Positions 3,801-64,000 of a stretch of DNA of 64,000 nt are shown in pieces. The notes under the pieces were generated by a model. It did not search any database, had not been told where the DNA came from, and saw only the letters and a program-made list of their open reading frames with translations. Source of the stretch: Candidatus Eiseniibacteriota bacterium (lineage in GTDB: Bacteria; Eisenbacteria; RBG-16-71-46; SZUA-252); assembly GCA_963724515.1 (NCBI GenBank), contig CAVRUU010000003.1, positions 643,593 through 707,592 on the forward strand, in the 5' to 3' direction. The number at the start of each line of letters is the position of its first letter. Position 1 is the stretch's first letter. The position numbers were made by a program, and so were the translations under genes.

Positions 3801-4464
3801 ACGTCCCGGCCCCGATGATCCCGTCCAGCACGCTTCTGGAGTTCCCGATCGGGTCGACAGCGCCGCCACCCCCGCCGATCAACCAGACGAAGTCGTAGCC
3901 GCCCTCGGTGCTGAATTGATAATCGAACGTGAGGTTGTAACTCGCACCGTGCGTCCCGGTGTCTATGTAGAGGATCTGGTACGTGAAGTTCGCGTAGCCA
4001 TACTTCACGACCCAATTCGCGTCGAATTTGCCGCACCAGAGCATCCGACTCCCCCCGATCGCCGGGGGGCAGTTCCCACCGGTGGTGCAGGTCGCGTTGT
4101 CCGAGACGTGCCACAGAACATCGCTCAGCGACTGGTCCACGACTTGGTACGGCCCCGTCGTGCCGGCCGTGTAGGAGTTCAGCGAGTCGGCTTGCGGGGT
4201 CGTCCGGGGAGTCCACGTGCTGTTCGCGCGATCGATGCACGCGCCGGGGTAGAGGAACCACGTAGTCGTCGCGGTCGCGGACCTGACGATCGAGCCAGCC
4301 CACGTCGGTGCAGGGACAGGTGACGGCGGCGGCGGGTAGCCCCCACCCTTGACGCGTTCGGCGGCCATGATGGGCGCGGGAGACAGGATCGGGAGAAGCG
4401 TCAGCGAAAGGACTACGAGGAGGACGTGGGCGCGATTCCGTGACTGCACAAGAAGCAAATCCAT
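862..4464 (-). CDS. Large secreted protein (1200 aa) with N-terminal signal peptide and C-terminal FlgD-Ig/T9SS-type sorting domain; function unknown
   Basis: ORF-track ORF. N-terminus 'MDLLLVQSRNRAHVLLVVLSLTLLPILSPAP' is signal-peptide-like. The C-terminal ~90 aa 'NRPNPFNPETVIPYSL...VRVYDVRGRLVRTLVD...SGIYFYLI...KKMAILR' matches the Por-secretion-tail / FlgD-Ig-like pattern. No HExxH or other catalytic motif recognised. Confidence 0.7.
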   Translation of the reverse strand: MDLLLVQSRNRAHVLLVVLSLTLLPILSPAPIMAAERVKGGGYPPPPSPVPAPTWAGSIVRSATATTTWFLYPGACIDRANSTWTPRTTPQADSLNSYTAGTTGPYQVVDQSLSDVLWHVSDNATCTTGGNCPPAIGGSRMLWCGKFDANWVVKYGYANFTYQILYIDTGTHGASYNLTFDYQFSTEGGYDFVWLIGGGGGAVDPIGNSRSVLDGIIGAGTYLIQWTGSISPTTPNATGGSTTGGPIMVTSGAGAPATVTGASFTIDASNRALYLVFKSDCFNSSEDGLWPEGHGQLLDNIFTSDNGTIYTDQAAAGGVDAFLGAVLVGTPGAPIVSARVAPGVGTLWQLVQGSSLPTPDTCTPKNTATDLIFEGGNVGNFHTVPNQFNSIVSCTFPIPPGIASVVGQWSQYEDLPRFQGYIQFAEYRFFKDGSWRRWRNTFLAGTRRGAALQYWYDVRAELAEATQADSVQLRYSVQCVPLLSADLNNCGDVIYGLLYDNFRLEVVTGVPSPVFGILPAFPAQSTFIDGTMAGTGCNAATVTAGACWPGIRGSDIAGGVAGGAVRDNFNSPLGDSITVSIGTGLRRDGMGINWHHGFDKSVSLGLTIAHTNPNFVAAFDAPRVIFRIFDPATKTWSPFDSSELDANSVALSSPDTVLIDTRFRMNWPPRDKIGSSLPGGFSVNGKSLYSQLAFLPRGTRLQYYLKGVDLNGGTTYRFSADWRAYEVEDLPILPGGSIVAPDIFEFNVLPRVYSPGAVGTQLAGKTSTPILNLDGSYTKWNYYVDPVTQALRALGVRADRYRTLQGDDEGNHIGGHEFVGTRAGRFGNYFPNMDEYSIKDSLALWYRIMIESSHVSTVVVDEESSAKLIKQWWETPTPGADGGDRCFFASGDNFFDELLAVGGPSHPNENALATSVLGVAAAANQWNGGGSITQPTIRDLFADPAAGPGLGTPGAYVYFVDGGCPVANRFDALVGIGSAEAQNSATYPTFASVTNVAAVSHATERDVLNDHDRNKALGYGFSIQFIRQGGSNLVDTRAQVLYKFLTSCRGPRSGSDTASCWPCPTDANKYGNWATLTGFSTGTYGPLYPIQDATRVLSTVDVTPPPSFVDALMQNRPNPFNPETVIPYSLSAAGRVTVRVYDVRGRLVRTLVDAVQPAGIHAARWNGIVESGKRTASGIYFYLITYPDGHTSSKKMAILR

Positions 4465-27100: not shown

Positions 27101-29632
27101 TGGCCGCCCGCGCTCGAAGTCGCCGGACCTTCCACCCAGCCGTCCGAGGAGGATTCGGGTCCGGAGATCGAGATCCCGGAGCTCACGTTCTGGAATGGGC
27201 GCGGGGGCTTCACGCCCGATGGGAAGGAATACGCGATCGTTCTGAACGGAGCCGACGAGACGCCGCTCCCCTGGGCCAACGTTCTCGCCAATCCGCGCTT
27301 CGGAAGCGTTGTGACGGCCGCCGGCCCCTCCTACACCTGGTCCGAGAACAGCCGCGAGAACCGGCTCACCCCGTTCATCAACGACCCGGTGACGGAAGGG
27401 ACCGGAGAGGCGATCTACCTGCGCGACGACAAGACGGGCGCGGCATGGGGCGCGACACCCGGCCCGATGCGGCGCGAAGCCGATGGAGGGCGCTGGATCG
27501 TGCGCCACGGCGCGGGCGTGACGCGCTACGTGCGCCGCCAGCGTGGGATTCGGCACGAGCTGGCGATCTTCGTCCATCCTACGGAGCCGGTGCGTTTCGC
27601 GCTGCTCACGCTCGCGAACCAGACGGGCCGGCCGCGGCGCCTGAGCGTCTTCAGCTACAACGAGTGGAGGCTCTCCCCGCCGCGCGCCGGCGAGCAGATC
27701 CACGTCCGCACGGAGCTCGAAGCAGACACTTCGGCACTGCTCGCGGAGAATCCGTACAACCAGGATTTCAGGGGACGGGTCGCATTCGCGCACGCCGGCC
27801 CGCTCACTTCCGCGACCGGCGACCGGCTGGAATTCCTGGGCAGGAACGGCACGATGGCGCGACCGGCCGCGCTCGGCCGCCGCGTGCTGTCGAACGCCTT
27901 CGGCGCGGGGCTGGATCCCTGCGCCGCGCTCCAGGTCGCCGTGGACCTGGCACCTCGCGAGACCCGCCAGGTCGTCTTCCTGCTCGGGCAGGGCGAGAAT
28001 CGTGACGCCGCTCTCCGTCTCGTTCGCGCTCATGGATCCGCATCCGCCGCGCTCTCGGCGCTCCGGGATGTCGAACGCTCCTGGGACGACATCCTCGGCG
28101 CGGTTCAGGTCCATACGCCGGACGACTCCTTTGATCTCCTCATGAATCGCTGGCTTCTCTATGAGTCCGTCGCGAGCCGGTTGTGGGCACGGACCGCCTA
28201 TTACCAGCCGGGCGGCGCGTATGGGTTCCGCGACCAGCTTCAGGACGTGATGGCGCTGAGTTTTGCAGGTCCCCGGCACTACCGGGAGCACCTGCTGCGC
28301 GCCGCCGGCCGCCAGTTCATCGAGGGGGATGTGCAGCACTGGTGGCACGCCCATACGGGGGCGGGTGTGCGGACCCGTTGCTCCGATGATTTCCTGTGGC
28401 TGCCGTTCGCCGTCGCGCACTACGTCGATGCGACCGGCGACCGCGCGGTTCTCGAGGAGCGCGTGCCGTTCCTGACAGGGCAACCCCTCCGTCCGGACGA
28501 GCAGGAGGCCTACGGTCATCCTGGCGTATCGGGCGAGAGCGCGACGCTCTACGAGCATTGCGCGCGCGCCATCGACCGGGGCATGACCTCGGGATCGCAC
28601 GGGCTCCCGCTGATCGGGAACGGCGACTGGAACGACGGCTTGAACCGTGTGGGGCGGCAGGGTCGGGGAGAAAGCGTCTGGCTGGGCTGGTTCCTGTCGA
28701 GGATCTTGAGGGATTTTGCCGGCCTCGCCGAGAAGCGTGGGGACGGCGAGCGAGCCGCCCGCTACAGGAACGAGATCGGACGCCTCGCGGTGGTTCTCGA
28801 ACAGGCCTGGGACGGGGACTGGTACCGGCGCGGGTACTTCGACGACGGCACGCCTCTCGGCTCGGCGCAGAGCGAGGAATGCCGCATCGATTCTGTCGCC
28901 CAGTCCTGGGCGGTGCTGTCCGGTGTCGCGCCTTCACAGCGCGCGGAGCGCGCGATGGACTCCGTGCGGAGCCATCTGGTCCGGCGGGACGCCCGCGTGG
29001 TCCTTCTCCTCACTCCTCCCTTCGACTCATCCCCGCTGGATCCCGGCTACATCAAGGGCTACATCCCCGGCGTGCGCGAGAACGGCGGCCAGTACACGCA
29101 CGCGGCGATCTGGGTCTTGATGGCGGTGGGCAGCCTCGGCAGCGGAGACGAGGCCGTGGAGCTCTTCCATCTCCTCAACCCGATCAATCACGGGCGCATG
29201 CCGGCCGACATCGCGCGCTACAAGGTCGAGCCCTACGTGGTCGCGGCGGACGTGTACGCGCACCCCGCCCACGCGGGCCGCGGCGGCTGGACCTGGCAAA
29301 CGGGATCGGCGAGCTGGATGTATCGTGCCGGTCTGGAGACCATCCTCGGGATCGAGCGCCGCGGTTCCACATTCTCCCTGAATCCCTGTCTGCCATTCGC
29401 GTGGCCTGGGTTCTCGGTCGTGCTTCGTACCGGGAATACGCGTTACGAGATCTCGGTCGAAAACCCCCAGCAGCGCTGCCGCGGGGTCTCGGAGGTGGAA
29501 CTGGATGGCGTTCCGGTCCCGGCCCATGCGATTCCCTTCCGCGACGACGGGGGAAGACATCAGATTAGAGCCGTGATCGGTGATCCGGTCATGGCAAGTA
29601 GCGGCGTCGGGCGGTCCGAACACGCGGGCTGA
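21104..29632 (+). CDS. cgs: Cyclic beta-1,2-glucan synthase homologue (Cgs/NdvB/ChvB-like, 2842 aa): N-terminal membrane domain + GT84 glycosyltransferase + C-terminal GH94-type glucan phosphorylase/hydrolase domain
   Basis: Size and architecture match the NdvB family: N-terminal '[12 protein letters not shown]' region, TM segments around residues 400-470 and 900-1000, a DxD-type motif '[13 protein letters not shown]', and a C-terminal alpha/alpha-toroid GH94-like region ('NGDWNDGLN', '[10 protein letters not shown]'). Uninterrupted 8.5-kb ORF. Confidence 0.75.
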
Positions 29633-30930: not shown

Positions 30931-33387
30931 GTGAGAAGAACTCAGGGGAAGTCCCGTACTACACCGCGTATCTGCATCGCGGTCCTCGTCTTGACCGGCT
31001 CCCTGCTCGCGGCGAACGCTCGAGCGGACGGCCCTTCCCCTGAGGAGCGTTCCATCCTCGACAAGCTCCGTGCGTCCGGCGCGCGCCCCGGGAGCGCCCT
31101 TCAGTTTCACCCGAGCACGCCCTCGGGAGCCCATGTCCAGGAAGTGCCGGTGAGGTTCGCGTGGCCCTTGCCCTGGCCTCAGTCGGATCCGAGGCTCAGG
31201 ATCACGAACTACGTAGACCATGCCCCGGACTTCGGGCTCATCCTCGACTACATGGGCTTGGGCTTCACCTACGACGGCCACTATGGGACAGACATCAACA
31301 TCAACTCGTTCGCGGACATGGACGAGGGGGTCCCGGTGCTCGCGGCCGCGAACGGACGGGTCATCTACGTCGTCGACGGGAATTATGATCGAATGTACGA
31401 GGCATCTCCGGTACCCGCCAATGGAGTTCAGTTGGTCCACGAGGACGGATCGACGAGCCTCTACTGGCACCTCCGGACGAATTCCACAATGGTTCAGCTG
31501 GGAGAGTACGTCCGCGAGGGTCAGCAGCTCGGGTTCGTGGGCAGCTCCGGCTTCACGATGACGCCGCATCTCCATTTCGAGGGCCGTGATCCGACCGGGA
31601 ATTTTGATCCCTGGAGCGGCCCCGCCAATCCATTTCCGAGCCTCTGGAAGCACCAGGAGGACTATTACGGGGACGATCATCTCGTCGTCCACATCCTGGG
31701 AGTGACGACAGGTTCGGCCTTCTTCGATGAGGGCTCGCTCTTGGATTGGTCGGCCTTCAAGGAAAAGCCGAGCCAGCCCGTGGTTTTCGGGGCCGACGAG
31801 CCGAATCTCAAAGTGTGGGTCTTGCTCTCCGGTCAACCGACAGAGCCCTATCGCGTCGAGGTCCACCGCCCCGACGGATCCATCTTTGGCCAGGTCGAGT
31901 CCGGAGTCACGGCTTACGTGCGGCACTGGGGGGAGGGGTACCAGTACTACGATTTCCCCTTCAACGGAAGGGTCTCAGCCGCTGACTATGGCGAGTGGTA
32001 CGCGCAGATCCTGTTCGGCGGCGTGCCGGTGAGCACGGACCGCTTCACGGTCGGCGAGACGAGCCGATACGCGCCCCGATTCCATTGGCTTGCCGGAAAG
32101 TCGCTCCACCTCTCCACCGAGAGGCAGCAGGACGTCCTCTCATTGTCCTTCCTCGGGGCTCCGCCCGAGAGCCTCACCTTCGCCCTGGAGAACGCGCCGA
32201 GCAATGTGTCGCTGGCCACGGATGAGTTTGGGCAGACGATCGTCCTGATCGATCCCGCCGGGCCGGACCTCGCCAACGTGCGTTCGCGCGAGTTCGCGGT
32301 CGTCGCGACGGATCCCGACGGACGGCAGGGCAGGATGCGCTACCACCTGGTCAACGATGCCGCGAGCACACTCGGGTCCCCGCCGGTCGCGGCCGCACCC
32401 GGCTCCGTATCAGGGATCCCGGGCGATACGGTTACCGTGGACGTCTCGGCATCGGACGCCGACGGCGATGAGATTGCCGGGTTGACCGCGGATCTCTCCG
32501 GGCTTCCATCAGGACACGGGGCGACGTTCACCGTCGGCGGGGGAAACACGATGGGGAGACTCGTCTGGCCAACCAGGGCCGGTGGCGGGGGCACGTACGC
32601 GGTGACCTTCACAGCCCGCACATCGCTCGGCAGCGGGTACCCCGAGTACTACGGGTACCCCGCGACCGTCCAGACAGGAACCGCGACGACGAGGATCACG
32701 CTCGTGGAGGAGCTGGCCGCGCGCGCGTTCACGATCGGCGGGAACAGGACGCTCCGCCTGTCCTCCCACGGGCATCACTCACACAGGGCTCCATGGTGCG
32801 TCAACGTGGAACCAGTGAAGGCCGACTTTCGCCTCACCGACATCGACCTCGCGAGCGTCGAGCTTGTGTCGGATGGAACCGGGACCGTCGATCGGATTTC
32901 CCCGTACAGCAGGAAGAGGATCGTAGTCGAGGACTGGGATCGCAATTGCGTGGCGGACATCGCCTTTTGCTTCGCCAACGAGGATCTGGGGAGGCTATTC
33001 AGCGCGGTCAAGGGCAGGCGGAGGCTGACCGCGACGATTCATGGCACGCTCGTTTCGGGCGCGAAGTTCTCCGCCGCGGTGACCTTGAACGTGGTCGCAA
33101 GCGGGCGCGACCGGGATGATGCCAGCATTTCCCCCAACCCACTGAACCCGGACGCGATTCTCACGCTCAGCCTCTCCCATCCGGGGCCGGTACGCGTTCA
33201 GATCTTCGACACCCAGGGCCGCCTGGTCCGGACGCTTCTGGACACGAGCTTCGCGCCGGCGGGCCCTCTCGAGCTTCGCGTCGAAGCGCGCGACGGCGCG
33301 GGGAGCGCCTTGAGCTCGGGCGTGTACTTCTATCAGGTCTCGACGAGCGACGGCGCGACGACGGGCCGGTTTGTAGTCCTGAAGTAG
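30931..33387 (+). CDS. Secreted M23-family (LytM-type) metallopeptidase with C-terminal FlgD-Ig/T9SS-type sorting domain (818 aa)
   Basis: Signal peptide. M23 motifs 'HYGTDI' (HxxxD) and 'TPHLHFE' (HxH). C-terminus 'ISPNPLNPDAILTLSL...VRVQIFDTQGRLVRTLLD...SGVYFYQV...GRFVVLK'. Confidence 0.8.
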   Translation: MRRTQGKSRTTPRICIAVLVLTGSLLAANARADGPSPEERSILDKLRASGARPGSALQFHPSTPSGAHVQEVPVRFAWPLPWPQSDPRLRITNYVDHAPDFGLILDYMGLGFTYDGHYGTDININSFADMDEGVPVLAAANGRVIYVVDGNYDRMYEASPVPANGVQLVHEDGSTSLYWHLRTNSTMVQLGEYVREGQQLGFVGSSGFTMTPHLHFEGRDPTGNFDPWSGPANPFPSLWKHQEDYYGDDHLVVHILGVTTGSAFFDEGSLLDWSAFKEKPSQPVVFGADEPNLKVWVLLSGQPTEPYRVEVHRPDGSIFGQVESGVTAYVRHWGEGYQYYDFPFNGRVSAADYGEWYAQILFGGVPVSTDRFTVGETSRYAPRFHWLAGKSLHLSTERQQDVLSLSFLGAPPESLTFALENAPSNVSLATDEFGQTIVLIDPAGPDLANVRSREFAVVATDPDGRQGRMRYHLVNDAASTLGSPPVAAAPGSVSGIPGDTVTVDVSASDADGDEIAGLTADLSGLPSGHGATFTVGGGNTMGRLVWPTRAGGGGTYAVTFTARTSLGSGYPEYYGYPATVQTGTATTRITLVEELAARAFTIGGNRTLRLSSHGHHSHRAPWCVNVEPVKADFRLTDIDLASVELVSDGTGTVDRISPYSRKRIVVEDWDRNCVADIAFCFANEDLGRLFSAVKGRRRLTATIHGTLVSGAKFSAAVTLNVVASGRDRDDASISPNPLNPDAILTLSLSHPGPVRVQIFDTQGRLVRTLLDTSFAPAGPLELRVEARDGAGSALSSGVYFYQVSTSDGATTGRFVVLK

Positions 33388-38620: not shown

Positions 38621-41335
38621 TTAGTACCGTTGACGCCAGGCGCGTACGGTGAGTTTCCGTACCGAGGCGCTGATATCCTGGGTCATCATCGTCGTGTTGG
38701 AGTTCTGGAAGATGATCGCCCCGTTCGCGAAGTCGACGGCGGGGTTCGACAGGATTCCGTCGCCCTTTGAGTCGATGCGACCGGCAGTCACGTTGTTTTC
38801 CGACCCGTCCTGATTGTCCTTCCCCGAGCCGTCATTGAAATCGAGGCTGTAGAGCCACGACTCCCCACCGGACTCGCAGGATCCGTTCTTGGGGCGGAAC
38901 GACGTCACGTAGAAGGTCCCCGCAGCGATCGTTCCCGCTCGAACCACGCGCTCGCCGCTGCTTTGGACGAGGTCGACGTACCATCCTCGGTCAGCGCCGG
39001 TCAGCGCCGTGATGCTGTTCGTCTGATTGACCAGACTCGCCCGCGTGAGGGCAGGACCCGAGTAGGTATCGAAGAGCCCGTAGATCGTTTGCGATGAGGT
39101 CGTGGACAGGTCCGCGTTGGTCAGGTACTTGCCCGTGCCAAAGTAGACAAGGACGCGACCCTGCTCGTCCATGCTCAGAGCCGGCGCCGCCTGGATCGGC
39201 TGGGCGTTGCTGAAGAGCTGGGCTACGGTCCAAGGATTGGTCTTGACGTCGACGCGCCACACACGCCCCGCGAGGTCGCCGACATAGAGCAGGTCATCGT
39301 ATCCGTCGAAGTCCTTGTCCAACACCGTGGCGGCCGTCGCCATGTTGGGTATGACAGCCGACCCGAGATTGTATGTCGCCAGGACCGATCCGTTGGCTGG
39401 GTCCAGGGCCAAGATGGACGCCTGGCCGGTCAAAGAGTCGAGACCCGTGCTGGCAGCCAGGACGAACTTGTCGAGGGTCTTGTCACGAACGAGCGCCGGG
39501 CGGTTCCAGGATCCCTTGAGCAGAGGCAGGTTGACATCCCAGAGAACGCTCACGTTGCCGGGCGTTGGATCGGTCACATCGAGCGCGAAGAGGCCGCTGC
39601 CGCCGCGCTCCTGCCCGCCGATCAGGACCGTCTTCCAGCTCCCATTGATGTAGATGTCGTAGACCGCCGACGCCATGTTCACGAAATACTCATGGCAGTA
39701 AGACGGGCTCATCAAGTCCTTCAGCTTCGACAGCTGATTCTTCGGCACGTAGGCCCAGCTCTCGGTTCCGTCCGAAGCCTTGAAGCAGTGAAGCATGCCG
39801 TCGTTGGCTCCCACGTAGAGCACCTCGGTCCGCCCGGCGTTGGCCGACCGGAACGCGGGATACGAGAGGAAGTCATGGAACGAAGCGGGCTTCCCGATCG
39901 TGATCGGAGAGGAATCGACGACGTCACCGAGCTTCCAATCGTCCCGATCACGGTAGCCCGCGAGATCCGTTCCGCGCGTGTAATCGATGATGTTCGTAGC
40001 CGCCGCGACATCGGCCGCTCCGAGCAGGACCTGGAGCGCAGCGGCATTACCCGTCGTGAAGTTCACCTTGTTCAGGCCGGTGGATGACGTGTAGATGGTG
40101 CGGGTGTTTGGCGCACGGCTCTGGAGGAGCGCGCCCGCTTCCCACAGAGGCGAGTTTCCGGTCGTGTACGGCAACGCGAACGACTCCACGAATCCCCTCC
40201 ATGAGACCGATTCGTACCTAGCGCGATAGAGCCGGTTGTTCGTCTGATCCTCAGCGGATACCACGGACACGGCCGTACCGGCCGACACCTTCTTGTCGAT
40301 CTCGGCCAGCGCCTGGGTCAAGGATGCGGTCAACTGGGCCGTGTTCCTGGCGCTGTACAGCAGCCCGCCGCCGAAGTCGGCCACGTTTTGCAAGATCGGC
40401 GCCGTGATGTTGAACCCGACGACATAGGTCGTGATGTTCTGCATTCCGCTCAGGTCCGCCCGCATGTCGTTCCGGTACAGGTAGTACGAGACACCCTCGA
40501 CGTAGTTGGTGCACTTATAGCTGTCCGGGAATGGCGCGCCAAGACTCGTGCAGGAACCGGGGGCGTCGCCGCTGCCGTCGGCGTCCTGCAGATACGCCGG
40601 CACATTCTCATCCCTCGTGGGGTGCCCGTCCGTCACGAGGAGGACGAACGGCTTCTCGCAGGCGGCCTTGAGAGGCGCGCTCGCGCCCGTGCTCTTGAAA
40701 TAGTTCATCGCGTCGACCATGTTCTCGGCAAGCGGAGTATACGCGTCGGCACTGATCCCGTTCACCGCGGCCTGAAGCGTCGCCACGCTGCTGCCCATCG
40801 GGGCGATCAGGGTTCCACCATTGTCGAAGTTGAACCTCTGGAGACCGAACGCAACATTGGTCGAAGCACTCGCGATCACGCTGTTCACCACCTGCTTCGC
40901 CACCTGAATCCGGGTCACCGCTGGAATCTGGGCCCGCTGGGTCGCGTCCGCCGTGAAGTAGATCCAGTTCAGATAGTTCCCGTCATACCAGGCATCGTCC
41001 CCTCCGTCGCTGTCCACCAGATAGGCGGAGGGCGTATTCGGCCAGGAATTGTTGAAGCTCTTCGGCGTCTTGTTGCCGTCGCTCGAGACGAGGTAGACCT
41101 GGTCGCTGGTGAAGTTCCCCGGGTAAGTCACCGTGTCGTCGTAGTCGTCGTGGTACAACGGGGCGTTCATGCTGGCAGAGTTGTCGAAAATGATGAGCAC
41201 TTTCGCCTCTCCGACCGTCCGTACGATCGGCAGCGGAATGTCGCATGACCCGGCAATCGAGTCGGTGGGTACCACAGCGACCGCGAATCCCGCGATCGCC
41301 AATCCAGCTGCAAAAAGAAGAAGTCTCGCCTTCAT
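38621..41335 (-). CDS. pilY1: Type IV pilus tip adhesin PilY1 family (N-terminal vWA-like domain + C-terminal beta-propeller)
   Basis: Signal peptide; MIDAS 'VLIIFDNSASM'; C-terminal region with 'YVGANDGMLHCFKASDGTESWAYVP', typical of the PilY1 propeller; 904 aa. Confidence 0.75.
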   Translation of the reverse strand: MKARLLLFAAGLAIAGFAVAVVPTDSIAGSCDIPLPIVRTVGEAKVLIIFDNSASMNAPLYHDDYDDTVTYPGNFTSDQVYLVSSDGNKTPKSFNNSWPNTPSAYLVDSDGGDDAWYDGNYLNWIYFTADATQRAQIPAVTRIQVAKQVVNSVIASASTNVAFGLQRFNFDNGGTLIAPMGSSVATLQAAVNGISADAYTPLAENMVDAMNYFKSTGASAPLKAACEKPFVLLVTDGHPTRDENVPAYLQDADGSGDAPGSCTSLGAPFPDSYKCTNYVEGVSYYLYRNDMRADLSGMQNITTYVVGFNITAPILQNVADFGGGLLYSARNTAQLTASLTQALAEIDKKVSAGTAVSVVSAEDQTNNRLYRARYESVSWRGFVESFALPYTTGNSPLWEAGALLQSRAPNTRTIYTSSTGLNKVNFTTGNAAALQVLLGAADVAAATNIIDYTRGTDLAGYRDRDDWKLGDVVDSSPITIGKPASFHDFLSYPAFRSANAGRTEVLYVGANDGMLHCFKASDGTESWAYVPKNQLSKLKDLMSPSYCHEYFVNMASAVYDIYINGSWKTVLIGGQERGGSGLFALDVTDPTPGNVSVLWDVNLPLLKGSWNRPALVRDKTLDKFVLAASTGLDSLTGQASILALDPANGSVLATYNLGSAVIPNMATAATVLDKDFDGYDDLLYVGDLAGRVWRVDVKTNPWTVAQLFSNAQPIQAAPALSMDEQGRVLVYFGTGKYLTNADLSTTSSQTIYGLFDTYSGPALTRASLVNQTNSITALTGADRGWYVDLVQSSGERVVRAGTIAAGTFYVTSFRPKNGSCESGGESWLYSLDFNDGSGKDNQDGSENNVTAGRIDSKGDGILSNPAVDFANGAIIFQNSNTTMMTQDISASVRKLTVRAWRQRY

Positions 41336-56592: not shown

Positions 56593-57387
56593 CTAACGCC
56601 GAAGCCGTCTTGCGTACAGGAGGAGCGGATTCCGCACGATGTAGATGCCGACCTGGAGCCGGTCCTGGAGCCCCAGCTTCGCGAGGATGTGCCCCACGTG
56701 CTTCTTCACCGTCGGTTCGCTGATCCCCAGCGCCCTTCCGATCTCCTTGTTCGATCGTCCGTCCGAAATGAGCCCGGCTACGTCCAGTTCCCGGGCGGAG
56801 AGCTCGCGCGAAGCGCCCGGCGACTCACTCGAGAGAGCCTTCTTCACGATCGCCGATGCGGTGAGTGGCTCGTACCACGCATTGCCCTCCGCCACAGTGC
56901 GCACCGCCCGAAAAAGCTCTTCCGGCTCCGCATCGCGCCGGAGCGCCCCGAGCGCTCCCTCGGAAACCGCGATCTGCAGACAATCGGTGCACATGCTCGC
57001 GGCCGAATTGGAAGCCGGAAGGTCCGAACGAACCCGATGAGGAGGGTTCAGGATCAGGCATTGTCCCGCGCCCCGTTCCGCGACGGCGATGACGTGGGTC
57101 GCGGGGTGCGCTGCGCGGACGAACGAAATCGCGGAAACGCCGTCCAGGCCGGGAAGGCCGATCGACATGATGACGACGTCGGGCCGAAGGCGCTTGCACC
57201 GGCTCGCCGCTTCCAGCCCGGTCGCGGCGTCGGCGACGATCTCGAAATCAGGCTGGGACTCGAGAACCGCGATGAGCCCCCGACGATCGATCGGTCGATC
57301 GTCTGCGACGATAATCCGGATCTTGCGCGCCCCCTTTCGCATACGGGGGGTTCGCGGGCGCGTCGGCTTTTCTGTGTGTGGGGTCAT
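56593..57387 (-). CDS. Two-component response regulator, NarL/FixJ (LuxR-HTH) family
   Basis: REC domain 'IRIIVADDRPIDRRGL...PDVVIMSIGLPGLDG' and C-terminal HTH 'LSARELDVAGLISDGRSNKEIGRALGISEPTVKKHVGHILAKLG'. An unusual ~25-aa insertion separates REC and HTH. Start may be the internal Met at ~57342. Confidence 0.75.
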   Translation of the reverse strand: MTPHTEKPTRPRTPRMRKGARKIRIIVADDRPIDRRGLIAVLESQPDFEIVADAATGLEAASRCKRLRPDVVIMSIGLPGLDGVSAISFVRAAHPATHVIAVAERGAGQCLILNPPHRVRSDLPASNSAASMCTDCLQIAVSEGALGALRRDAEPEELFRAVRTVAEGNAWYEPLTASAIVKKALSSESPGASRELSARELDVAGLISDGRSNKEIGRALGISEPTVKKHVGHILAKLGLQDRLQVGIYIVRNPLLLYARRLRR

Positions 57388-57536
57388 GACGGCGCTATGC
57401 TACCAATGGACCAGTGCAGATGCAACCTGTGTAAGGTAGACGTAACTGCGTCAGAGTCGATAGGTTCCGCCGTAGACAAGGAAACGGTCCGCTGGCTCGC
57501 AACCGGCGACTCGATGGTGGTCGTAGGGGAGGGGTC

Positions 57537-58469
57537 ATGAATCGAGCGCGCGTCTACCAAGTCGGCCTCGCAACGGCCGCGGTGCTCCTCACCACCTGCT
57601 TCGCTCCCGCGTTCGCAGACGATAGCGGGTCCCAATACGTCGGCTCCAAGACTTGCGCCACGTGCCACGAGGAGCAGTTCGAGGCGTTCCAGAGCAACGT
57701 GCATCACCAGGCGGAGCTGGACGGCTCGCTGGTCGCCGAGCACGTCGGATGCGAGGCATGCCACGGCCCCGGCTCGCGTCACGTCGCGGCCGACGGCAAT
57801 GAAGACGACCCGGGGTTCGCCACGATGCGCGTGTTCAAGCGCATGAAACCGGACGAAGCCTCGGCCGTCTGCCAGACGTGCCACAAGACCGGGGAGCAGC
57901 TCTACTGGCTGCAGAGCACCCACTCGCGGAACGACGTCGCATGCCAGAGCTGCCATTCCATCCACAACGCGAAGAGCGAGGCCCAGGCCAAGCTGCTCGT
58001 GAAGGAGAGGTCAGCGGACCTCTGCATCTCGTGTCACGGCGACAAGCGGGCCGCGCTGGAGCACACCGCGCACATGCCGCTCCGCGAGGGCGCCATGAGC
58101 TGCGTCGATTGCCACAATCCCCACGGCTCGGTCGGCCCGAGAATGATCCGTGCCGCCTCGAACACCGAGCTTTGCGTCACCTGCCACATGGACAAGCGTG
58201 GCCCCTTCATGTACGAGCATCCGCCGGTTCGAGAGAATTGCGTCTCATGCCATCAGCCACATGGGTCGAACAGCGACAAGATCCTCGCCGGGAGGCGCCC
58301 GTACCTGTGCCAGCGGTGCCACGTCGGTTCGCGGCATCCGAGCACCCTTTATGACGTGCCGGATTTCACGGCCAGCGGAGCCAATAAGGTCATCAACCGG
58401 TCCTGCACGAACTGTCACAGCCAGATTCACGGCTCGAATCACCCATCCGGAGAATTCTTCCTGAGATAG
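57537..58469 (+). CDS. mtrA: Periplasmic decaheme c-type cytochrome, MtrA/DmsE/MtoA/PioA family
   Basis: Signal peptide and exactly 10 CxxCH motifs in 310 aa (CATCH, CEACH, CQTCH, CQSCH, CISCH, CVDCH, CVTCH, CVSCH, CQRCH, CTNCH), the size and heme density of the MtrA/DmsE family. Confidence 0.8.
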   Translation: MNRARVYQVGLATAAVLLTTCFAPAFADDSGSQYVGSKTCATCHEEQFEAFQSNVHHQAELDGSLVAEHVGCEACHGPGSRHVAADGNEDDPGFATMRVFKRMKPDEASAVCQTCHKTGEQLYWLQSTHSRNDVACQSCHSIHNAKSEAQAKLLVKERSADLCISCHGDKRAALEHTAHMPLREGAMSCVDCHNPHGSVGPRMIRAASNTELCVTCHMDKRGPFMYEHPPVRENCVSCHQPHGSNSDKILAGRRPYLCQRCHVGSRHPSTLYDVPDFTASGANKVINRSCTNCHSQIHGSNHPSGEFFLR

Positions 58470-58485: not shown

Positions 58486-60609
58486 ATGGTTCGGACCTTG
58501 GTGGCGCTTTCAGTGCTTCTCGTAGCGATCGTGCTGGGGGATCCGGCTCCGGCCGCTGAGAACGCCGATGGATCTGTCACGTTCGGCACTCAGTGGTGGA
58601 ACCAGACGGCCCCGGAAGCGAAGTTTCAGGAGTTCAATCAGGTCCCTCGCGGCGCGTTCATGGATTCCTACGCTCTGCGCACCTGGCGGGATCGCAATCT
58701 CCTTCTGTTCTACGGTCAGCACGCGTTCCGAACCGACCAGTCGAATACGCTCAACTGGTGGCACGGCGCGAAGCTCCGGATCGACGTCGGCTACCGGGAG
58801 ATTCCCCACAACCTGAGTTTCATCGTGCATTCCCCCTTTACCGAAATCGCTCCGGGAGTGGAGGTCGTGCCCGATTCGCTGCAGGCCCAAAACGAGGCGA
58901 ACGCCGCCGGCTACGTCGCCCGAATGCGGTCCGCGCTCGCGGCCTCTCCGCGTCTCAACATGGGGTTCCGGACCGATCTCACGAAGGCACGGGTGAGGGC
59001 GCGGCCGGCGCGCTCCTGGCAATTCGATCTGCAGGGGAGCCGGCGCCTGCGTTCGGGGCGCAAGCCCTGGGGCGGCGGGTTCAGCCCGGGCAACGGCGTG
59101 GAGGTCTGGGAACCGATCTCCCAGCGGATGCTGGATGGAGAGGCGCGCGCGAGCTACCAAAAGAACCGCATGACCCTGATGGCGGCCGCGGGGGTGTCGG
59201 AATTCACCAACAACGTGGACACGCTCACGTTTGACAACCCGGCCCGCCTGACGGCTCAGAGCAAGGGGCGAGCCGATCTTTATCCCGACAACCGCTCGGT
59301 CCGTGGAACGCTCGCCCTGGCGTACCAGGCCCCGATGCGAACGGCCTTCAACGGAACCGTAGGGCTGAGCCGGAACACCCAGAACGATCCGTGGGTGCCA
59401 TTCACGGCGAACACCACGAGCCCCTATTCCAGCCTGGACTCGCTTCCTCCCGAGCGCAGCACGCATGCCAAGGTGGATATCTTCACTCAGGATTACCGTG
59501 TGACGTCGCATCCTCTGGCGGATCTGGGCGGGACGCTGCGGTTCCGGCAGTACCACTACCTCAATCGCACCCCCGAGCACATCTTCTCGGGCGAGTCGGT
59601 GGCGGACGCCGCCTTCGCCGTGGGTGCCATCGAGACGGAGCCGGCCAGCTACAAGCACCAGTCGTACGGAATCGATCTCGACTACAACCCGCTCAAGCGG
59701 ATCGGCCTTTCCGGGACGGCGGAGCGTCTCGATCGCACACGCACGCATCGCGAAGTCCTCTCCGATCGTGAAGAGTCCTACGGCGGCAAGCTTCGCGTCC
59801 GGCCGATCGACAAGGTCTCGCTCGAGGCCCATGCCCGAAGCGCCAAACGCTGGGCGCGGAATGCGGACTTCTCGTACGGCGGTATCGAGCAGACGGCTCT
59901 GCGGCGGTTCGACGTGGCGGATCGGAAGCAGACCCAGGCGGGTGGAAGCGTGGGATTCACGCCGACCGATCGCTTCGAATTGACGGCGAGCTTCGCGTAC
60001 CTCTTCGAGAAGTACGAGAACGACCTGGCGGACACCGTCCGGATCGGCCTTCGCAGGGTCCACCAGCGCAACACGAGCGTGGACATCAACTATCACGCTT
60101 CCGCGAACATGGACCTGTCGGGGTCGCTCGGCTGGGAGCAGTTCATCTCGCGCCAGGCATCGCGCCAGAGCCGGAGCGCGGCCATGGGCACGGCGGACTC
60201 CACGTGGACGGCCCGCGAGAAGAACGAGGGATTGTTCGGGAACGTGGGCATCGACTGGCGCGCCAAGCCCGATCGCCTGGGGTTCAACCTGGGGTTGGAC
60301 TACGCGCGTTCTCCGACGTCGTTCGTCTTCGCGACTCTGACGCCGGTGATCAGCGCACAGAATCCGCCGTATATCAGGTACCGCCGGATCGACCTCACGT
60401 TCGAGACCAAGTATGACCTCGCCGCCGAGACGCAGGTCGGGGTCCAGTACGCGTGGGAGCAGTTCGACGTCACGGATTTCTCCGCGCAGGACATCCCCAA
60501 TATCGGTATCGCGGTTGGAGCTTCGAACGCGAACTTCATCTACCTCGGCGACAGTTTCCAGAGCTACCGAGCGCACCGAGTGGCCCTCGTGGTTCGCCAG
60601 AGATTCTGA
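58486..60609 (+). CDS. mtrB: MtrB/PioB/MtoB-family outer-membrane beta-barrel porin (partner of the decaheme cytochrome), 707 aa
   Basis: Signal peptide, ~700 aa with alternating short beta-strand periodicity and a C-terminal aromatic residue ('...ALVVRQRF'). Encoded 17 nt downstream of the decaheme gene, as in mtrAB/mtoAB/pioAB loci. Confidence 0.7.
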   Translation: MVRTLVALSVLLVAIVLGDPAPAAENADGSVTFGTQWWNQTAPEAKFQEFNQVPRGAFMDSYALRTWRDRNLLLFYGQHAFRTDQSNTLNWWHGAKLRIDVGYREIPHNLSFIVHSPFTEIAPGVEVVPDSLQAQNEANAAGYVARMRSALAASPRLNMGFRTDLTKARVRARPARSWQFDLQGSRRLRSGRKPWGGGFSPGNGVEVWEPISQRMLDGEARASYQKNRMTLMAAAGVSEFTNNVDTLTFDNPARLTAQSKGRADLYPDNRSVRGTLALAYQAPMRTAFNGTVGLSRNTQNDPWVPFTANTTSPYSSLDSLPPERSTHAKVDIFTQDYRVTSHPLADLGGTLRFRQYHYLNRTPEHIFSGESVADAAFAVGAIETEPASYKHQSYGIDLDYNPLKRIGLSGTAERLDRTRTHREVLSDREESYGGKLRVRPIDKVSLEAHARSAKRWARNADFSYGGIEQTALRRFDVADRKQTQAGGSVGFTPTDRFELTASFAYLFEKYENDLADTVRIGLRRVHQRNTSVDINYHASANMDLSGSLGWEQFISRQASRQSRSAAMGTADSTWTAREKNEGLFGNVGIDWRAKPDRLGFNLGLDYARSPTSFVFATLTPVISAQNPPYIRYRRIDLTFETKYDLAAETQVGVQYAWEQFDVTDFSAQDIPNIGIAVGASNANFIYLGDSFQSYRAHRVALVVRQRF

Positions 60610-60680: not shown

Positions 60681-61136
60681 TTGCGAGAATCCGACGGAAC
60701 GAGAACAACGCCGCTCCCGCGCCGGGCCTTCCTGTCCCGGTTCCTGAGCCTCTCCGTGGGCACCCTCTGCGCGGCGGTCTTTTATCCCGTCGCCCGGTTT
60801 CTGAGCCCGCCCCATGTCGAGGAGGATGTGGGGTCCCGCGTTCTCGCCGGTAAGGTCTCCGAGGTCTCGAAGGAAGGCTGGAAGATCTTCCCGATGGGCT
60901 CGGAGCCCGGCATCCTGATCGAGAACACTCCCGGCGAGTTCCGCGCCTTCACGGCGAATTGCACGCATCTTGGGTGCACCGTCCAGTTCGATAAGAGTTC
61001 CCACCGGATCTGGTGCGCGTGCCACAACGGCTATTACGACCTCGAAGGCAGGAACGTGGCGGGTCCCCCGCCCCGGCCTCTCAAGCCGTTCACGGTCCAA
61101 GTGAGCGGAGACGATATTTTCGTCAGCCGCGCCTGA
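60681..61136 (+). CDS. Rieske [2Fe-2S] iron-sulfur protein with Tat signal (cytochrome bc-type complex subunit)
   Basis: Twin-arginine motif '[10 protein letters not shown]'; Rieske boxes 'CTHLGCT' and 'CACHNG'. TTG start. Confidence 0.85.
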
Positions 61137-61137
61137 A

Positions 61138-62313
61138 GTGAAGGAGGCGCCGTCCATGATCCGAAAGATCGGCGAGTGGCTCGACGCTCGGATCGGGCTC
61201 GGCGGGCTCCGGCACGTCGCCGAGGAGAAGACCGTCCCGCTGCACCGGCACAGCCCCTGGTACTACCTGGGCGGGATGACGCTCTTCTTCTTCATGATCC
61301 AGGTCGGAACAGGCATCCTCCTGATGCTGTACTACCGCCCCTCCACCCAGGAAGCGTACGAGTCGATCCAGTTCATCCTGACCCAGGTCCCCTTCGGGTG
61401 GCTGATCCGCTCGATCCACTCCTGGTCGGCAAATCTGATGATCGCGGCCGCGCTCGCGCACCTGTTCTCCGTTCTCTTCCTCAAGGCCTACCGTCCGCCC
61501 CGGGACCTGACGTGGATGACCGGATTCGCCCTCCTGATCCTCGCCATGGGGTTCGGGTTCTCCGGGTACCTCCTCCCGTGGAACAAGCTGGCGTACTTCG
61601 CGACGAAGGTGGGGACGGATATCGCCGGGACGGTGCCCCTCGTGGGCGACTTCGTGGTTCGGTTCCTGCGCGGAGGCGATCACGTCACCGGAAGCACCCT
61701 CTCCCGCTTCTATGGATGGCACGTAGCCATCCTGCCCGCGCTGGCGACATCCCTGCTCGTCCTCCACCTCGTCCTGGTGCAGCGGCACGGAATGAGCGTG
61801 CCGCCTTCAGTCGAGAAGGAGCCCGGCCCGCAGCGAAGCATGCGGTTCGTGCCGGACTTCCTCCTTCGCGATCTCTTCGGATGGACCCTCGCCCTCGGTG
61901 TGCTGGCCGCGCTCGCCGCCCTCTTTCCCTGGGAGCTGGGGGAGAAGGCGGATCCGTTCGCGCCCGCGCCCTCGAACATCCGTCCCGAGTGGTATTTCGT
62001 GGCGATGTTCCAGACCTTGCGGTTGGTTCCCGGGGGCGCGCTGCTCGGGATCGAGAACGAGGCCGCGGTGATCCTCGCCTTCGGTGCGATTGGGGCGCTC
62101 GGGTTCCTGATCCCATTCCTCGATCGTTCGGTCGTCAAAAGCGGCAGGAGCCCGGCGTTCACGCTTCTCGGCGTGGTGGCGCTCGCGTTCCTCGTCGGAA
62201 TGACCGCATGGGGCTACCACGCGTGGTGGCCCATCGCGGTCGCGTTCGTCGTGGCCGCGGCGGGATGGCTCTCCGGCAGGGCGATGGTCTCCAAGCGCGG
62301 CGGTGCCGGATGA
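61138..62313 (+). CDS. Cytochrome b (bc1/b6f-type, 391 aa)
   Basis: Heme-ligand His-bearing helices ('[19 protein letters not shown]', '[11 protein letters not shown]...[10 protein letters not shown]') and the 'PEWYF' Qo-site motif. Starts 1 nt after the Rieske stop. Confidence 0.85.
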
Positions 62314-64000
62314 GCGCGCGGGCGTGGTTCCTGGGCTTCCTCGTTCTGCTCTCGACCGCTTTCACGGACCACGCTCTGGGAGCGCCGGCCCGCCCCGACA
62401 CGAGCTCCTGCATCTCGTGTCATCGGGACGCGGACGAGTCCCGGTTACGAAACCCGGTCGTGGCCTGGTCCAATGACGTCCACGCCGCCGCCGGGTTGGG
62501 ATGCGAGTCCTGCCATGGGGGGGATCCGCGACGGGCCGCCACCAAGGACCCGGATGAAGCCGCGGACTACGCGATGGATCCCGCCAAGGGATTCAAGCCG
62601 CCTCCCGATCGTCTCGAGATTCCTCAATTCTGCGCACGATGTCATTCGGACGCGGCCTACATGAAACGCTACAACCCGCAGCTGCGCGTGGACCAGTACG
62701 CCGAGTACCGGACCAGCGTGCACGGGAAGCTCAACGCCGCCGGAGACTCGAAACCGGCCACGTGCATGGACTGCCACAATGTCCACGGGATCCGTCCGGT
62801 CAATCATCCCAGCTCGCCGGTCTACGCCCAGAACGTGCCGAAGACGTGCGCCCGATGCCACGCGGACTCGTCATTCATGGCCCCTTACAAGATCCCCACG
62901 AACCAGTACGCCGACTATCAGAGGAGCGTCCATGCGGGCGCGCTCCTGGAGCAGGGGGACCTTTCGGCTCCGGCGTGCAATGACTGTCACGGAAACCACG
63001 GGGCGGCGCCACCCGAGGTGAAGTCGGTGATCCATGTCTGCGGCCAATGCCACGCGCGCGAGGCGGGCCTCTATCAGAGCTCGATGAAGAAGGCGCTCTT
63101 CGAGCGGCTGAAGGTGCCCGAGTGCATCGTGTGCCACAGCAATCATCGCATCCTGCACCCAACGCCCGAGCTGTTCCACGGGCGATCGGCGCCCGAGATC
63201 ACGGCGGGCACGATCACGGGCAAGGACCCATTTACCGCCCATGTCGGGGAGCTGGCGCAGGGTCAGAAGGTCACGGCGACTTGGCGGGACGTCCTGAGTC
63301 CCCATGTCGAGGCGGCGGATCCCCGCTACCGGCACACGATCGAGATCACCGCGAAGGGCATGGCTCCCGTCGTCTTGGACGCGACCGTGCGTCCCGGCGC
63401 CGCTGCGGCGCCCCGGTCCTCCGGCCCGTCCGGAACCCCCGCCCGCCTCGCGACAGCGCTCACCATCGAGCCGCTGTCCGGGATCCCGGTGGAAGCCGGG
63501 GACGCGATTCTCTTCCGCCTCGAGGTTTCTGCCGGAATCGAAGCAGTGCAGGACCTCCGCATCTTCGATCGGCCGGGCCAGGCGGTGCATCCGATCGCCG
63601 GGGCTGCCTGCATGACATGTCACAAGATGGGGGATTCGTGCGACGTCGCCTCCGAAACGATGTACGCTACTCTGAGCGGGCTCGATCGAGAGATACGGCT
63701 CGGAACAGCCCTGCTTCGAAAGGCGGAGCTCGCTGGGATGGAGGTGAGCCGCCCCATGTTCGACCTGAAGAGCAAGGGGACGACCGCGGCGATCGAGGCG
63801 CGCTCTCTGATCCATTCCTTCGATCCGCCCAGGCTTGTGAAGCGTGCCAACGAGGGCCGCGTGGCCGCCGCGGAAGCGAAAGCCGCTGGGAACCGGGCTT
63901 TGGACGAGATTCAGGTTCGCCGCAAAGGCCTCGCGGTATCGCTCGTGTTGGTGGTGCTCGTCCTGACGGGTCTCGCTCTCAAGATCCGCCAGCTGGACAG
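62310..64000 (+). CDS. Membrane-anchored multiheme c-type cytochrome (at least 9 CxxCH), 3' end beyond window; third subunit of the Rieske/cyt b complex
   Basis: Not in the ORF track because there is no stop in the window. ATG overlaps the cyt b stop (ATGA). My translation gives a signal peptide '[18 protein letters not shown]', CxxCH motifs CISCH, CESCH, CARCH, CMDCH, CARCH, CNDCH, CGQCH, CIVCH, CMTCH, and a C-terminal TM helix '[18 protein letters not shown]' near 63930-63990. Confidence 0.75.

Follow-up and report, generated by a model that had tools for sequence, protein, structure and literature searches.

Complexes built on a Rieske protein and cytochrome b are already known in which a multiheme protein replaces cytochrome c1 or f, as are gene clusters that join a porin to a Rieske/cytochrome b pair, including an MtrAB-PetAB cluster described from Zixibacteria in 2013. 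Here we compare with these systems a gene at the end of a 64,000-nucleotide stretch of contig CAVRUU010000003.1 from a Candidatus Eiseniibacteriota bacterium; the whole stretch was analysed and is called the window. The gene, located at 62310..64000 on the forward strand, encodes a c-type cytochrome with nine heme-binding motifs and directly follows the genes of a Rieske protein and a cytochrome b. This nonaheme protein is very likely the c-type subunit of a widespread Rieske/cytochrome b complex, and the complex is probably coupled in this lineage to an MtrAB-type porin-cytochrome conduit whose genes head the same operon. New with respect to the literature searched are the conserved nonaheme subunit, its distribution, its fusions with cytochrome b and its architecture, in which the hemes are arranged 8+1 and a helical stalk and an optional beta-sandwich are present.

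The cluster of Zixibacteria RBG-1 carries MtrA and MtrB together with PetAB and with inner-membrane or periplasmic multiheme and monoheme cytochromes (PMC3903129). It was found to be without an extracellular cytochrome and was hence read by Castelle et al. (2013) as a system for Fe(II) oxidation (PMC3903129). In Geobacter sulfurreducens, the ExtHIJKLMNOPQS (Cbc5) cluster encodes a porin-like protein, multiheme cytochromes, the Rieske protein ExtO and the b-type cytochrome ExtP (PMC5877670). Two complexes of the anammox bacterium Kuenenia (Kuste4569-4574 and Kustd1480-1485) have a membrane-anchored hexa- or octaheme cytochrome c in place of cytochrome f (PMC12954380). In AlphaFold models of these complexes, the cytochrome surrounds its partners with long helices, and its two most membrane-proximal hemes occupy the acceptor position (PMC12954380). 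In Acidithiobacillus ferrooxidans, the iron-oxidation chain passes electrons to the petI bc1 complex (PMC10654088).

On the evolutionary side, Baymann et al. (2012) placed the Rieske/cytochrome b enzymes of Acidobacteria and Gemmatimonadetes in unusual 'green-clade' groups, and the passages of that paper concerned do not include the c subunit of these enzymes (PMC3509893). Multiheme acceptors for ancestral bc complexes were proposed by Dibrova et al. (2013), as cited in PMC5317091. A 2018 survey of the quinol oxidases and quinone reductases of extracellular electron transfer (EET) covers the CymA, CbcL and ImcH families and never names a Rieske/cytochrome b complex (PMC6295460). A 2026 preprint on multiheme cytochromes from peat makes no mention of Rieske proteins or cytochrome b, and a literature search with 'nonaheme' and 'Rieske' found no paper.

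The core of the locus in the window consists of three genes:

60681..61136, forward strand: Rieske [2Fe-2S] protein (PF00355, 43 bits; NF010001, 73.8 bits, under the cutoff of that model).

61138..62313, forward strand: unsplit cytochrome b of 391 amino acids (PF00033, 172 bits; PF00032; PEWY motif and four heme-b histidines).

62310..64000, forward strand: nonaheme c-type cytochrome gene, 563 of 567 codons (stop-free frame, guanine-plus-cytosine (GC) content of 0.82 at the third codon position, identity with the public protein P0001, nine conserved CxxCH motifs).

Cytochrome b was found by hydropathy to have eight transmembrane helices, and among PDB entries it matches cytochrome b6 (E 8e-55) and a bacterial cytochrome b best. 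The Rieske protein carries a twin-arginine signal or anchor and the two cluster boxes CTHLGC and CACHNGYY. With the PEWY motif, the four b-heme histidines and both Rieske boxes present, the bc core looks functional. In the Rieske box, a glycine replaces the serine of high-potential Rieske proteins, and this suggests a low-potential, menaquinol-type centre. Cytochrome b carries a tyrosine at the position of the heme-ci cysteine (FYCLGG of the b6-type proteins).

The nonaheme gene was missing from the list of open reading frames (ORFs) supplied with the sequence. An earlier note on this DNA had proposed a continuous frame from the ATG that overlaps the cytochrome b stop codon, and translation of the window bears this out. 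A single stop-free frame of 563 codons covers 62310..64000, and the remaining five frames of this region carry 2 to 19 stops. Over the three codon positions the GC content is 0.67/0.51/0.82, as is typical of coding sequence in this window of 66% GC, and the probability of a chance open frame of this length is about 1e-6. The ATG at 62310 shares four bases with the TGA of the cytochrome b gene, as ATGA, and the same 4-nucleotide overlap was observed between the called genes of four relatives (L001, L002, L083 and L084). P0001 is 100% identical to the window frame and is 567 amino acids long, ending in ...KIRQLDRSRR; the window is therefore without just the last four codons and the stop, and the gene is nearly complete. 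The earlier note was thus right that the frame leaves the window and that the gene went unlisted for this reason, as the listing leaves out ORFs that cross the end, and its description of the gene as partial can be refined to four codons and a stop. The signal peptide, the nine CxxCH motifs and the C-terminal transmembrane anchor that it described were all recovered by motif count and hydropathy, and the motif count in the full protein P0001 is also nine. For annotation this means that ORFs at the end of a contig need to be called as partial genes; otherwise, the operon seems to encode a bc complex without a c-type subunit.

The relatives of the nonaheme protein are numerous. A word-indexed search returned 6736 proteins at E<=0.001, and an exhaustive profile search gave 907 clusters (at 50% identity) at E<=1e-30. 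They are encoded in at least 578 genomes in a scan of one genome per species, and the closest homologues of the window protein are labelled Eisenbacteria and Latescibacteria. We scored 84 loci, made up of 80 fetched from the species scan and five from contig look-ups, less one duplicate contig. These loci are distributed over Acidobacteriota (Pyrinomonadaceae, Blastocatellia, Thermoanaerobaculia, Vicinamibacteria, Terriglobia and Aminicenantes), Eisenbacteria, Gemmatimonadota, Rokubacteria, KSB1, Zixibacteria and others.

A cytochrome b gene was observed to adjoin the nonaheme gene in 82 of the 84 loci, and the other two are without flanking sequence, so that all 82 informative loci agree. The Rieske gene was seen in 77 of the 84. 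The usual gene order is Rieske, cytochrome b, nonaheme, and in several loci from Gemmatimonadota and Rokubacteria it is nonaheme, Rieske, cytochrome b. Furthermore, in-frame fusions of cytochrome b with the nonaheme protein were found in at least six clusters (P0079, P0119, P0196, P0200, P0206 and P0262), and at L085 the two are fused in one ORF of 953 amino acids. Such fusions are a Rosetta-stone sign that points to physical association with cytochrome b. They also fit the topology, because cytochrome b ends on the cytoplasmic side after eight helices and a ninth helix puts the hemes in the periplasm; as judged from the junction in P0079, the segment that otherwise forms the signal peptide would be this ninth transmembrane helix. 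The adjacency, the fusions and a topology like that of cytochrome c1 or f together argue that the nonaheme protein is the c-type subunit of the Rieske/cytochrome b complex, and the subunit role given to it in the earlier note is supported on each of these counts.

The nine CxxCH motifs start at residues 34, 65, 108, 152, 180, 223, 244, 272 and 434, compared with 0.03 motifs expected from the composition. All nine are 100% conserved in the 105 full-length relatives that were aligned (35 of a long form and 70 of a short form, assigned by protein length and alignment), which removes the concern in the earlier note that the motifs might not hold in homologues. Exactly nine histidines and methionines outside the motifs are conserved in >=94% of the same 105 sequences, namely H58, H138, H159, H208, H230, H279, H502, M118 and M190. 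Neither CxxCK nor any other atypical heme motif was found in the protein. Nine candidate distal ligands without an atypical motif suggest nine six-coordinate hemes, seven of which appear to be His/His and two His/Met ligated. As these ligands suffice for all nine hemes, the protein looks like an electron wire that transfers electrons without catalysis. An unpaired cysteine, Cys444, is located in a GDxCD motif six residues past the CxxCH of heme 9 (window 63639-63641). It is invariant in 62 long-form sequences and is not conserved in the short forms; it may act as a ligand, form a disulfide or serve as a redox switch.

The protein can be divided into five parts along the forward strand:

62310..62384, forward strand: signal peptide, residues 1-25 (...HALG/AP), with a hydrophobic N-terminus and low predicted local distance difference test scores (pLDDT) at residues 1-27 in AlphaFold2 (AF2).

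62397..63179, forward strand: eight-heme periplasmic domain, residues 30-290, with Pfam matches above the cutoffs and short helices in AF2.

63195..63593, forward strand: heme-free beta-sandwich insert, residues 296-428, with AF2 strands at 301-428 and pLDDT mostly >90; it belongs to the long form only.

63600..63923, forward strand: ninth heme motif CMTCH, residues 434-438, followed by a long-helix bundle at residues 443-538 in AF2, with H502 conserved in 98%.

63924..63992, forward strand: C-terminal transmembrane anchor, residues 539-561, with Kyte-Doolittle values up to 2.63; it continues the last AF2 helix and is conserved in relatives.

The AF2 model of the protein was made from a 62-sequence alignment and is confident, with a pLDDT of 89 and a predicted template-modelling score of 0.82; the C-terminal half modelled alone reaches a pLDDT of 94. 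The N-terminus looks like a Sec signal peptide. Within the eight-heme domain, the module of hemes 3 and 4 and that of hemes 5 and 6 form a tandem internal duplication with 44% identity (E 1e-16; residues 108-235, window 62631-63014), and the duplicated di-heme module has the pattern CARCH..M..Y..SVH..CxDCHxxHG. In the alignment, each of the 70 short-form relatives (typical length 410-445 amino acids) has a gap in place of the beta-sandwich, and P0119 and P0120 also lack it. Long helices were modelled at residues 443-474, 480-499 and 506-566 with pLDDT >94, and the last of these becomes the membrane anchor. Basic residues (KIRQLDRSRR), on the cytoplasmic side, come after the transmembrane helix.

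Four generic multiheme Pfam families matched above their gathering cutoffs, all of them inside residues 27-280: PF14537 (48.7 bits, cutoff 25), PF14522 (43.3, cutoff 24.8), PF09699 (40.0, cutoff 20.6) and PF02085 (33.3, cutoff 22.9). By these domain models, which are the only ones that it passes, the nonaheme protein appears to be a member of the generic multiheme c3-like superfamily, and public annotation of its relatives reads 'cytochrome c3 family protein'. No Pfam family was found on the beta-sandwich or on the module of heme 9 and the long helices, even at E<=10, and no curated NCBIfam model matches the protein beyond weak generic ones. A single-sequence search of the PDB gave 6lod_A (ActA) as the best match, below threshold at E 0.27 and 12.9 bits, which gives no ground for placing the protein with ActA of alternative complex III. 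A profile of 62 sequences searched against the PDB reached E 0.002-0.01, in local stretches of NrfA heme pairs only. Foldseek found no match to the model at E<=0.001. Below that threshold, heme 9 and the long helices show a recurrent likeness to the C-terminal module of NrfA (probability 0.99-1.0, E 0.05-0.19), and this modelled resemblance serves as a lead only.

The protein was also compared with the families whose position or heme content it recalls. Cytochrome c1 and cytochrome f share with it the position in the operon, a heme domain in the periplasm, a signal peptide that is cleaved off, a single C-terminal transmembrane anchor and, as proposed for the window protein, the place in the complex as partner of the Rieske protein; they have one heme and the window protein nine. 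No match to cytochrome c1 (PF02167) or cytochrome f (PF01333) was found at E<=0.01, and no c1 or f structure in the PDB matched by sequence or by Foldseek. It does not belong to the MtrA/DmsE family either (TIGR03508, 52.6 bits against a cutoff of 192.2), having nine hemes and a C-terminal anchor. The NapC/NirT/NrfH/CymA family (PF03264) gave no match and the NrfH model only 20.9 bits against a cutoff of 134; here the anchor is C-terminal and not N-terminal. Membership of the NrfA family is likewise not indicated, as there is no CxxCK and no significant match by sequence or fold.

In the window, the three core genes are part of a larger operon on one strand, in the order mtrA, mtrB, Rieske, cytochrome b, nonaheme and a monoheme cytochrome c. 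The gaps between these genes are 16-71 nucleotides, or the genes overlap by 4 nucleotides. The upstream part contains the following features:

56593..57387, reverse strand: LuxR/NarL-type response regulator (PF00072 and PF00196), divergent from mtrA.

57537..58469, forward strand: MtrA/DmsE-family periplasmic decaheme cytochrome of 310 amino acids with ten CxxCH motifs (TIGR03508, 263 bits, cutoff 192).

58486..60609, forward strand: MtrB/PioB-family outer-membrane beta-barrel porin of 707 amino acids (PF11854, 234.6 bits, full length).

The MtrA-like decaheme aligns with chain A of 6r2q, the solved MtrCAB of Shewanella, at E 3e-58. The MtrB-like porin scores 179.5 bits on TIGR03509, under the cutoff of 240, and gave no PDB match by phmmer. 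From these family matches, the mtrA and mtrB neighbours are predicted to form a porin-cytochrome conduit of the MtrAB/MtoAB/PioAB type. No MtrC-type surface cytochrome gene was found in the operon, as the divergent regulator stands directly upstream of mtrA. This regulator probably controls the operon, and a regulator of the same type is located upstream of the same operon in L084. A 283-residue ORF at 56689-57540 on the forward strand was considered as an MtrC-like gene and rejected: its translation is rich in arginine, it has no family match and it is a shadow of the regulator gene on the reverse strand. The sixth gene, for a class-I monoheme cytochrome c of 138 amino acids, is located directly downstream of P0001, just outside the window. 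The earlier note's reading of the locus holds for the nonaheme gene and its role as a subunit; that mtrA and mtrB head the same operon went unmentioned there. As a point of nomenclature, the PDB table names 6r2q chain A (333 residues) 'Cystathionine beta-synthase', which looks like a labelling error given the alignment with the MtrA-like protein.

The same six-gene operon was found in L001, L083 and L084 at 58-74% identity, and L083 also shares the upstream malic enzyme gene with the window. In L031, L004 and L053, MtrAB is placed after the bc module and not before it. Across the 84 loci, an MtrA-like decaheme lies within 10 kb in 29. In loci of Blastocatellia and Pyrinomonadaceae, an MtrA-like decaheme and a porin-sized protein of 746 amino acids precede the Rieske gene, and at L017 (Blastocatellia) a further three genes for multiheme cytochromes are located downstream of the nonaheme gene.

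Two observations at individual loci may be recorded here. The 746-residue protein in the MtrB position of L017 (5889-8129) belongs to no Pfam family and has only a marginal match to DUF2490; it is probably a divergent porin. A few genes upstream of the operon in L083, just past the malic enzyme gene, a protein of 1319 amino acids with multicopper-oxidase, PKD and Ig domains was noticed (1-162, the gene running off the locus), and it may be relevant to metal oxidation.

When the operon is set against the described systems, Zixibacteria RBG-1 shares by description the MtrA/MtrB pair, the Rieske protein and cytochrome b, the multiheme and monoheme cytochromes and the lack of a surface cytochrome. 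A member of the nonaheme family was also found next to Rieske and cytochrome b genes in the Zixibacteria locus L063. In the RBG-1 paper, the multiheme protein is not recognised as a nonaheme subunit that is conserved, and its distribution, fusions and architecture are left undescribed (PMC3903129). The organism of the window also belongs to another lineage than Zixibacteria.

The Geobacter Ext cluster likewise combines a porin, multiheme cytochromes and a Rieske/cytochrome b pair in one conserved cluster. It differs in that its cytochrome b is split (ExtP and ExtQ) and its porin ExtI is not MtrB-like. By description it has cytochromes of 4, 5, 10 and 12 hemes, a rhodanese and a selenoprotein, and no C-terminally anchored nonaheme cytochrome is described. 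The window cytochrome b reaches 207.7 bits on the ExtP model NF040969, under the cutoff of 290, and the locus is thus not assigned to the Ext/Cbc5 type. The anammox complexes are distinguished by a split b6 and subunit IV, heme cN and an NAD(P) oxidoreductase subunit, whereas the window has an unsplit cytochrome b of eight transmembrane helices, a tyrosine for the heme-ci cysteine and no NAD(P) oxidoreductase gene in the operon. Cytochrome b and operon content therefore place the locus outside the anammox type. The earlier note had likened the nonaheme protein to Geobacter Cbc-type and anammox cytochromes: as an analogy this likeness stands, while homology is not shown, with no specific tie to a solved or curated family.

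The operon was also compared with two Fe(II)-oxidising layouts. The petI bc1 complex of A. ferrooxidans is a precedent, in that its genes accompany those of cytochromes for Fe(II) oxidation. This complex works backwards and passes electrons from cytochrome c to quinone. It differs from the window complex in its canonical monoheme c1, and A. ferrooxidans works at acidic pH with Cyc2 and rusticyanin instead of MtrAB. The MtoAB-MtoD-CymA system of Sideroxydans and PioABC of Rhodopseudomonas have, like the window, a decaheme and an MtrB/PioB porin without MtrC (PMC10654088). They also share with it a small periplasmic carrier and a quinone-interacting inner-membrane module, although in Mto this module is the tetraheme CymA and in the window a complex of Rieske protein, cytochrome b and nonaheme protein that could run a Q cycle. 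A search of the PDB with the downstream monoheme cytochrome gave no significant similarity to a solved cytochrome, which leaves the analogy with MtoD unsupported by sequence.

From these data a path for electrons can be proposed. The nonaheme protein would be a third redox subunit that replaces cytochrome c1 or f, exported by Sec and held in the inner membrane by its C-terminal helix. Its long-helix stalk would hold heme 9 close to the membrane, and heme 9, probably the heme nearest to the membrane, would exchange electrons with the mobile Rieske cluster. In this way, quinol/quinone chemistry at the Qo and Qi sites of cytochrome b would be coupled through the Rieske cluster to the membrane-nearest heme. 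The eight other hemes would form a wire reaching into the periplasm, and this wire would most likely join the (mena)quinone pool both with MtrA, seated in the MtrB porin, and with the small class-I cytochrome c. Electrons would then have a full path connecting the inner membrane with the cell exterior.

That the MtrAB linkage is kept despite rearrangement of the gene order argues for functional coupling, and we consider it probable that the bc/nonaheme complex is coupled to MtrAB in this lineage. Several observations weigh against this view. About two thirds of the loci were found to be without an MtrA-like gene within 10 kb. L054 (Terriglobia) has the three-gene module by itself, surrounded by housekeeping genes (EF-P and a phosphoribosyltransferase), and in L082 (Gemmatimonadota) it is paired with a multi-domain class-I cytochrome c. 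As the coupling is not universal, the role of the family as a whole is read from these neighbourhoods as that of a general quinol:cytochrome c oxidoreductase with varying periplasmic partners, the link to MtrAB being lineage-specific. The contact with MtrA is suggested by the structure of the operon. The monoheme cytochrome that might act as an MtoD-like shuttle resembles, as noted above, no solved cytochrome, and an MtrC-type gene may be located elsewhere on the contig of the host. In two Eisenbacteria loci, L002 (7119-8252) and L085 (8245-9375), a c554-like multiheme cytochrome of about 376 amino acids was observed to precede the Rieske gene, replacing MtrAB.

If the complex is coupled to MtrAB, inward flow of electrons is slightly favoured, and outward flow is also credible. 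Inward flow would oxidise extracellular Fe(II) or another reduced substrate and would branch at the nonaheme and monoheme cytochromes, with electrons going on to a terminal oxidase or being pushed back through the bc complex to quinone by the proton-motive force. It is favoured because the operon is without an MtrC-type surface cytochrome, because the layout parallels that of MtoAB-MtoD-CymA and PioABC and because a forward Q cycle needs an acceptor above the potential of the Rieske centre. This means about +100 mV or more even in menaquinol-type enzymes, which excludes most Fe(III) oxides.

Among the alternatives, the one that survives best is an outward EET, in which menaquinol would be oxidised through the Q cycle and electrons would be passed by the nonaheme wire to MtrA/MtrB and on to Fe(III), Mn(IV), humics or soluble metal complexes, as an energy-conserving counterpart of CymA, CbcL and ImcH. 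The flow from quinol to an acceptor is the normal direction of Rieske/cytochrome b complexes, the MtrA protein is clearly homologous to that of Shewanella and the three extra multiheme cytochrome genes downstream in L017 are consistent with such a role. The Geobacter cluster ExtHIJKLMNOPQS, which contains a Rieske/cytochrome b pair, is also up-regulated on Fe(III) (PMC5877670). We nevertheless find this alternative rather doubtful, since the operon has no surface cytochrome of the MtrC/OmcA type, the potential required by the Q cycle leaves out most Fe(III) oxides on general bioenergetic grounds and the class-I monoheme cytochrome c in the same operon is typical of links to an oxidase.

The monoheme cytochrome behind the nonaheme gene would also suit an ordinary complex III, with the nonaheme protein as the c1 equivalent of this lineage, electrons passing from quinol to a soluble cytochrome c and an oxidase, and mtrAB acting independently. 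The three-gene module is solitary in many genomes, as L054 exemplifies, the module of L082 has a class-I cytochrome c as its neighbour and an MtrA-like gene is nearby in just 29 of the 84 loci. However, mtrA, mtrB and the bc genes are co-stranded with the short gaps or overlaps given above, both in the window and in its closest relatives, and their linkage survives a changed order: MtrAB precedes the bc genes in the window, L001, L083 and L084 and comes behind them in L031, L004 and L053, which speaks for selection on the linkage. Nine hemes also far exceed what is needed to reach a soluble cytochrome c. An ordinary complex III is therefore an unlikely explanation of this locus.

A catalytic multiheme enzyme tethered to the bc complex, like NrfA or HAO and acting on nitrite, hydroxylamine or sulfur species, is highly improbable and was rejected. 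The sole solved look-alikes of the nonaheme protein are indeed the NrfA nitrite reductases, in the local profile matches and the Foldseek likeness described above, and such a role was proposed for the HAO-like subunit of an anammox Rieske/cytochrome b complex (PMC12954380). These NrfA matches are below significance, however (Foldseek E 0.05-0.5, TM-score <=0.31), and in the absence of CxxCK the nine conserved histidines and methionines would suffice as ligands of all hemes, with no obvious open site. That the frame is no gene at all, being a chance opening in GC-rich DNA or a pseudogene, has next to no probability, for although long spurious ORFs are frequent at 66% GC (the 283-residue shadow ORF is an example), this reading is refuted by the frame statistics, the coding pattern of the third codon position, the nine CxxCH motifs and thousands of homologues in which the motifs are conserved.

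Other features of the window touch the subject less directly. Genes for a malic enzyme, an alcohol dehydrogenase, a P-type ATPase, HSP20 and a Ser/Thr kinase are located near the operon and have no bearing on the direction of flow. At 21104-29632 on the forward strand, a protein of 2842 amino acids with GH94 supersandwich, GH94 catalytic and glucoamylase domains resembles cyclic beta-1,2-glucan synthase/phosphorylase. Among several large proteins of the window with type IX sorting tails, two secreted ones, one of 1200 amino acids (862-4464, reverse strand) and one of 818 amino acids with an M23 peptidase domain (30931-33387, forward strand), carry FlgD_ig, Por_Secre_tail and CHU_C tails; these sorting tails indicate a predicted type IX secretion system, which fits the FCB superphylum. 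Two proteins of 904 amino acids are encoded on the reverse strand: the one at 14420-17134 is a predicted protein with a strong coding signal and no Pfam match at E<=0.001, and that at 38621-41335 has a PilY1 domain and is a component of a type IV pilus tip or an adhesin.

The nonaheme family dominates in abundant soil phyla, for example Acidobacteriota, Gemmatimonadota and Eisenbacteria. It is without a solved structure or a curated full-length model, and no experimental study of it was found in the literature searched; its characterisation would fill a gap in the description of respiratory chains even without the link to MtrAB. How the conduit and the quinone pool are connected is unsettled in Fe(II) oxidisers and electroactive bacteria beyond Shewanella and Geobacter, and this locus provides a concrete candidate that can be tested. 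As a tentative proposal, the Rieske/cytochrome b/nonaheme complex may be the dedicated inner-membrane partner of MtrAB conduits in Eisenbacteria, Acidobacteriota and Zixibacteria, and it may thus form a fourth class of quinol oxidase/quinone reductase in EET, one that is reversible and capable of a Q cycle. If so, the nine-heme stalk, together with the beta-sandwich where present, would physically connect the complex to MtrA, and bacteria of soils and sediments would either conserve energy while exporting electrons or push electrons derived from Fe(II) uphill into the quinone pool.

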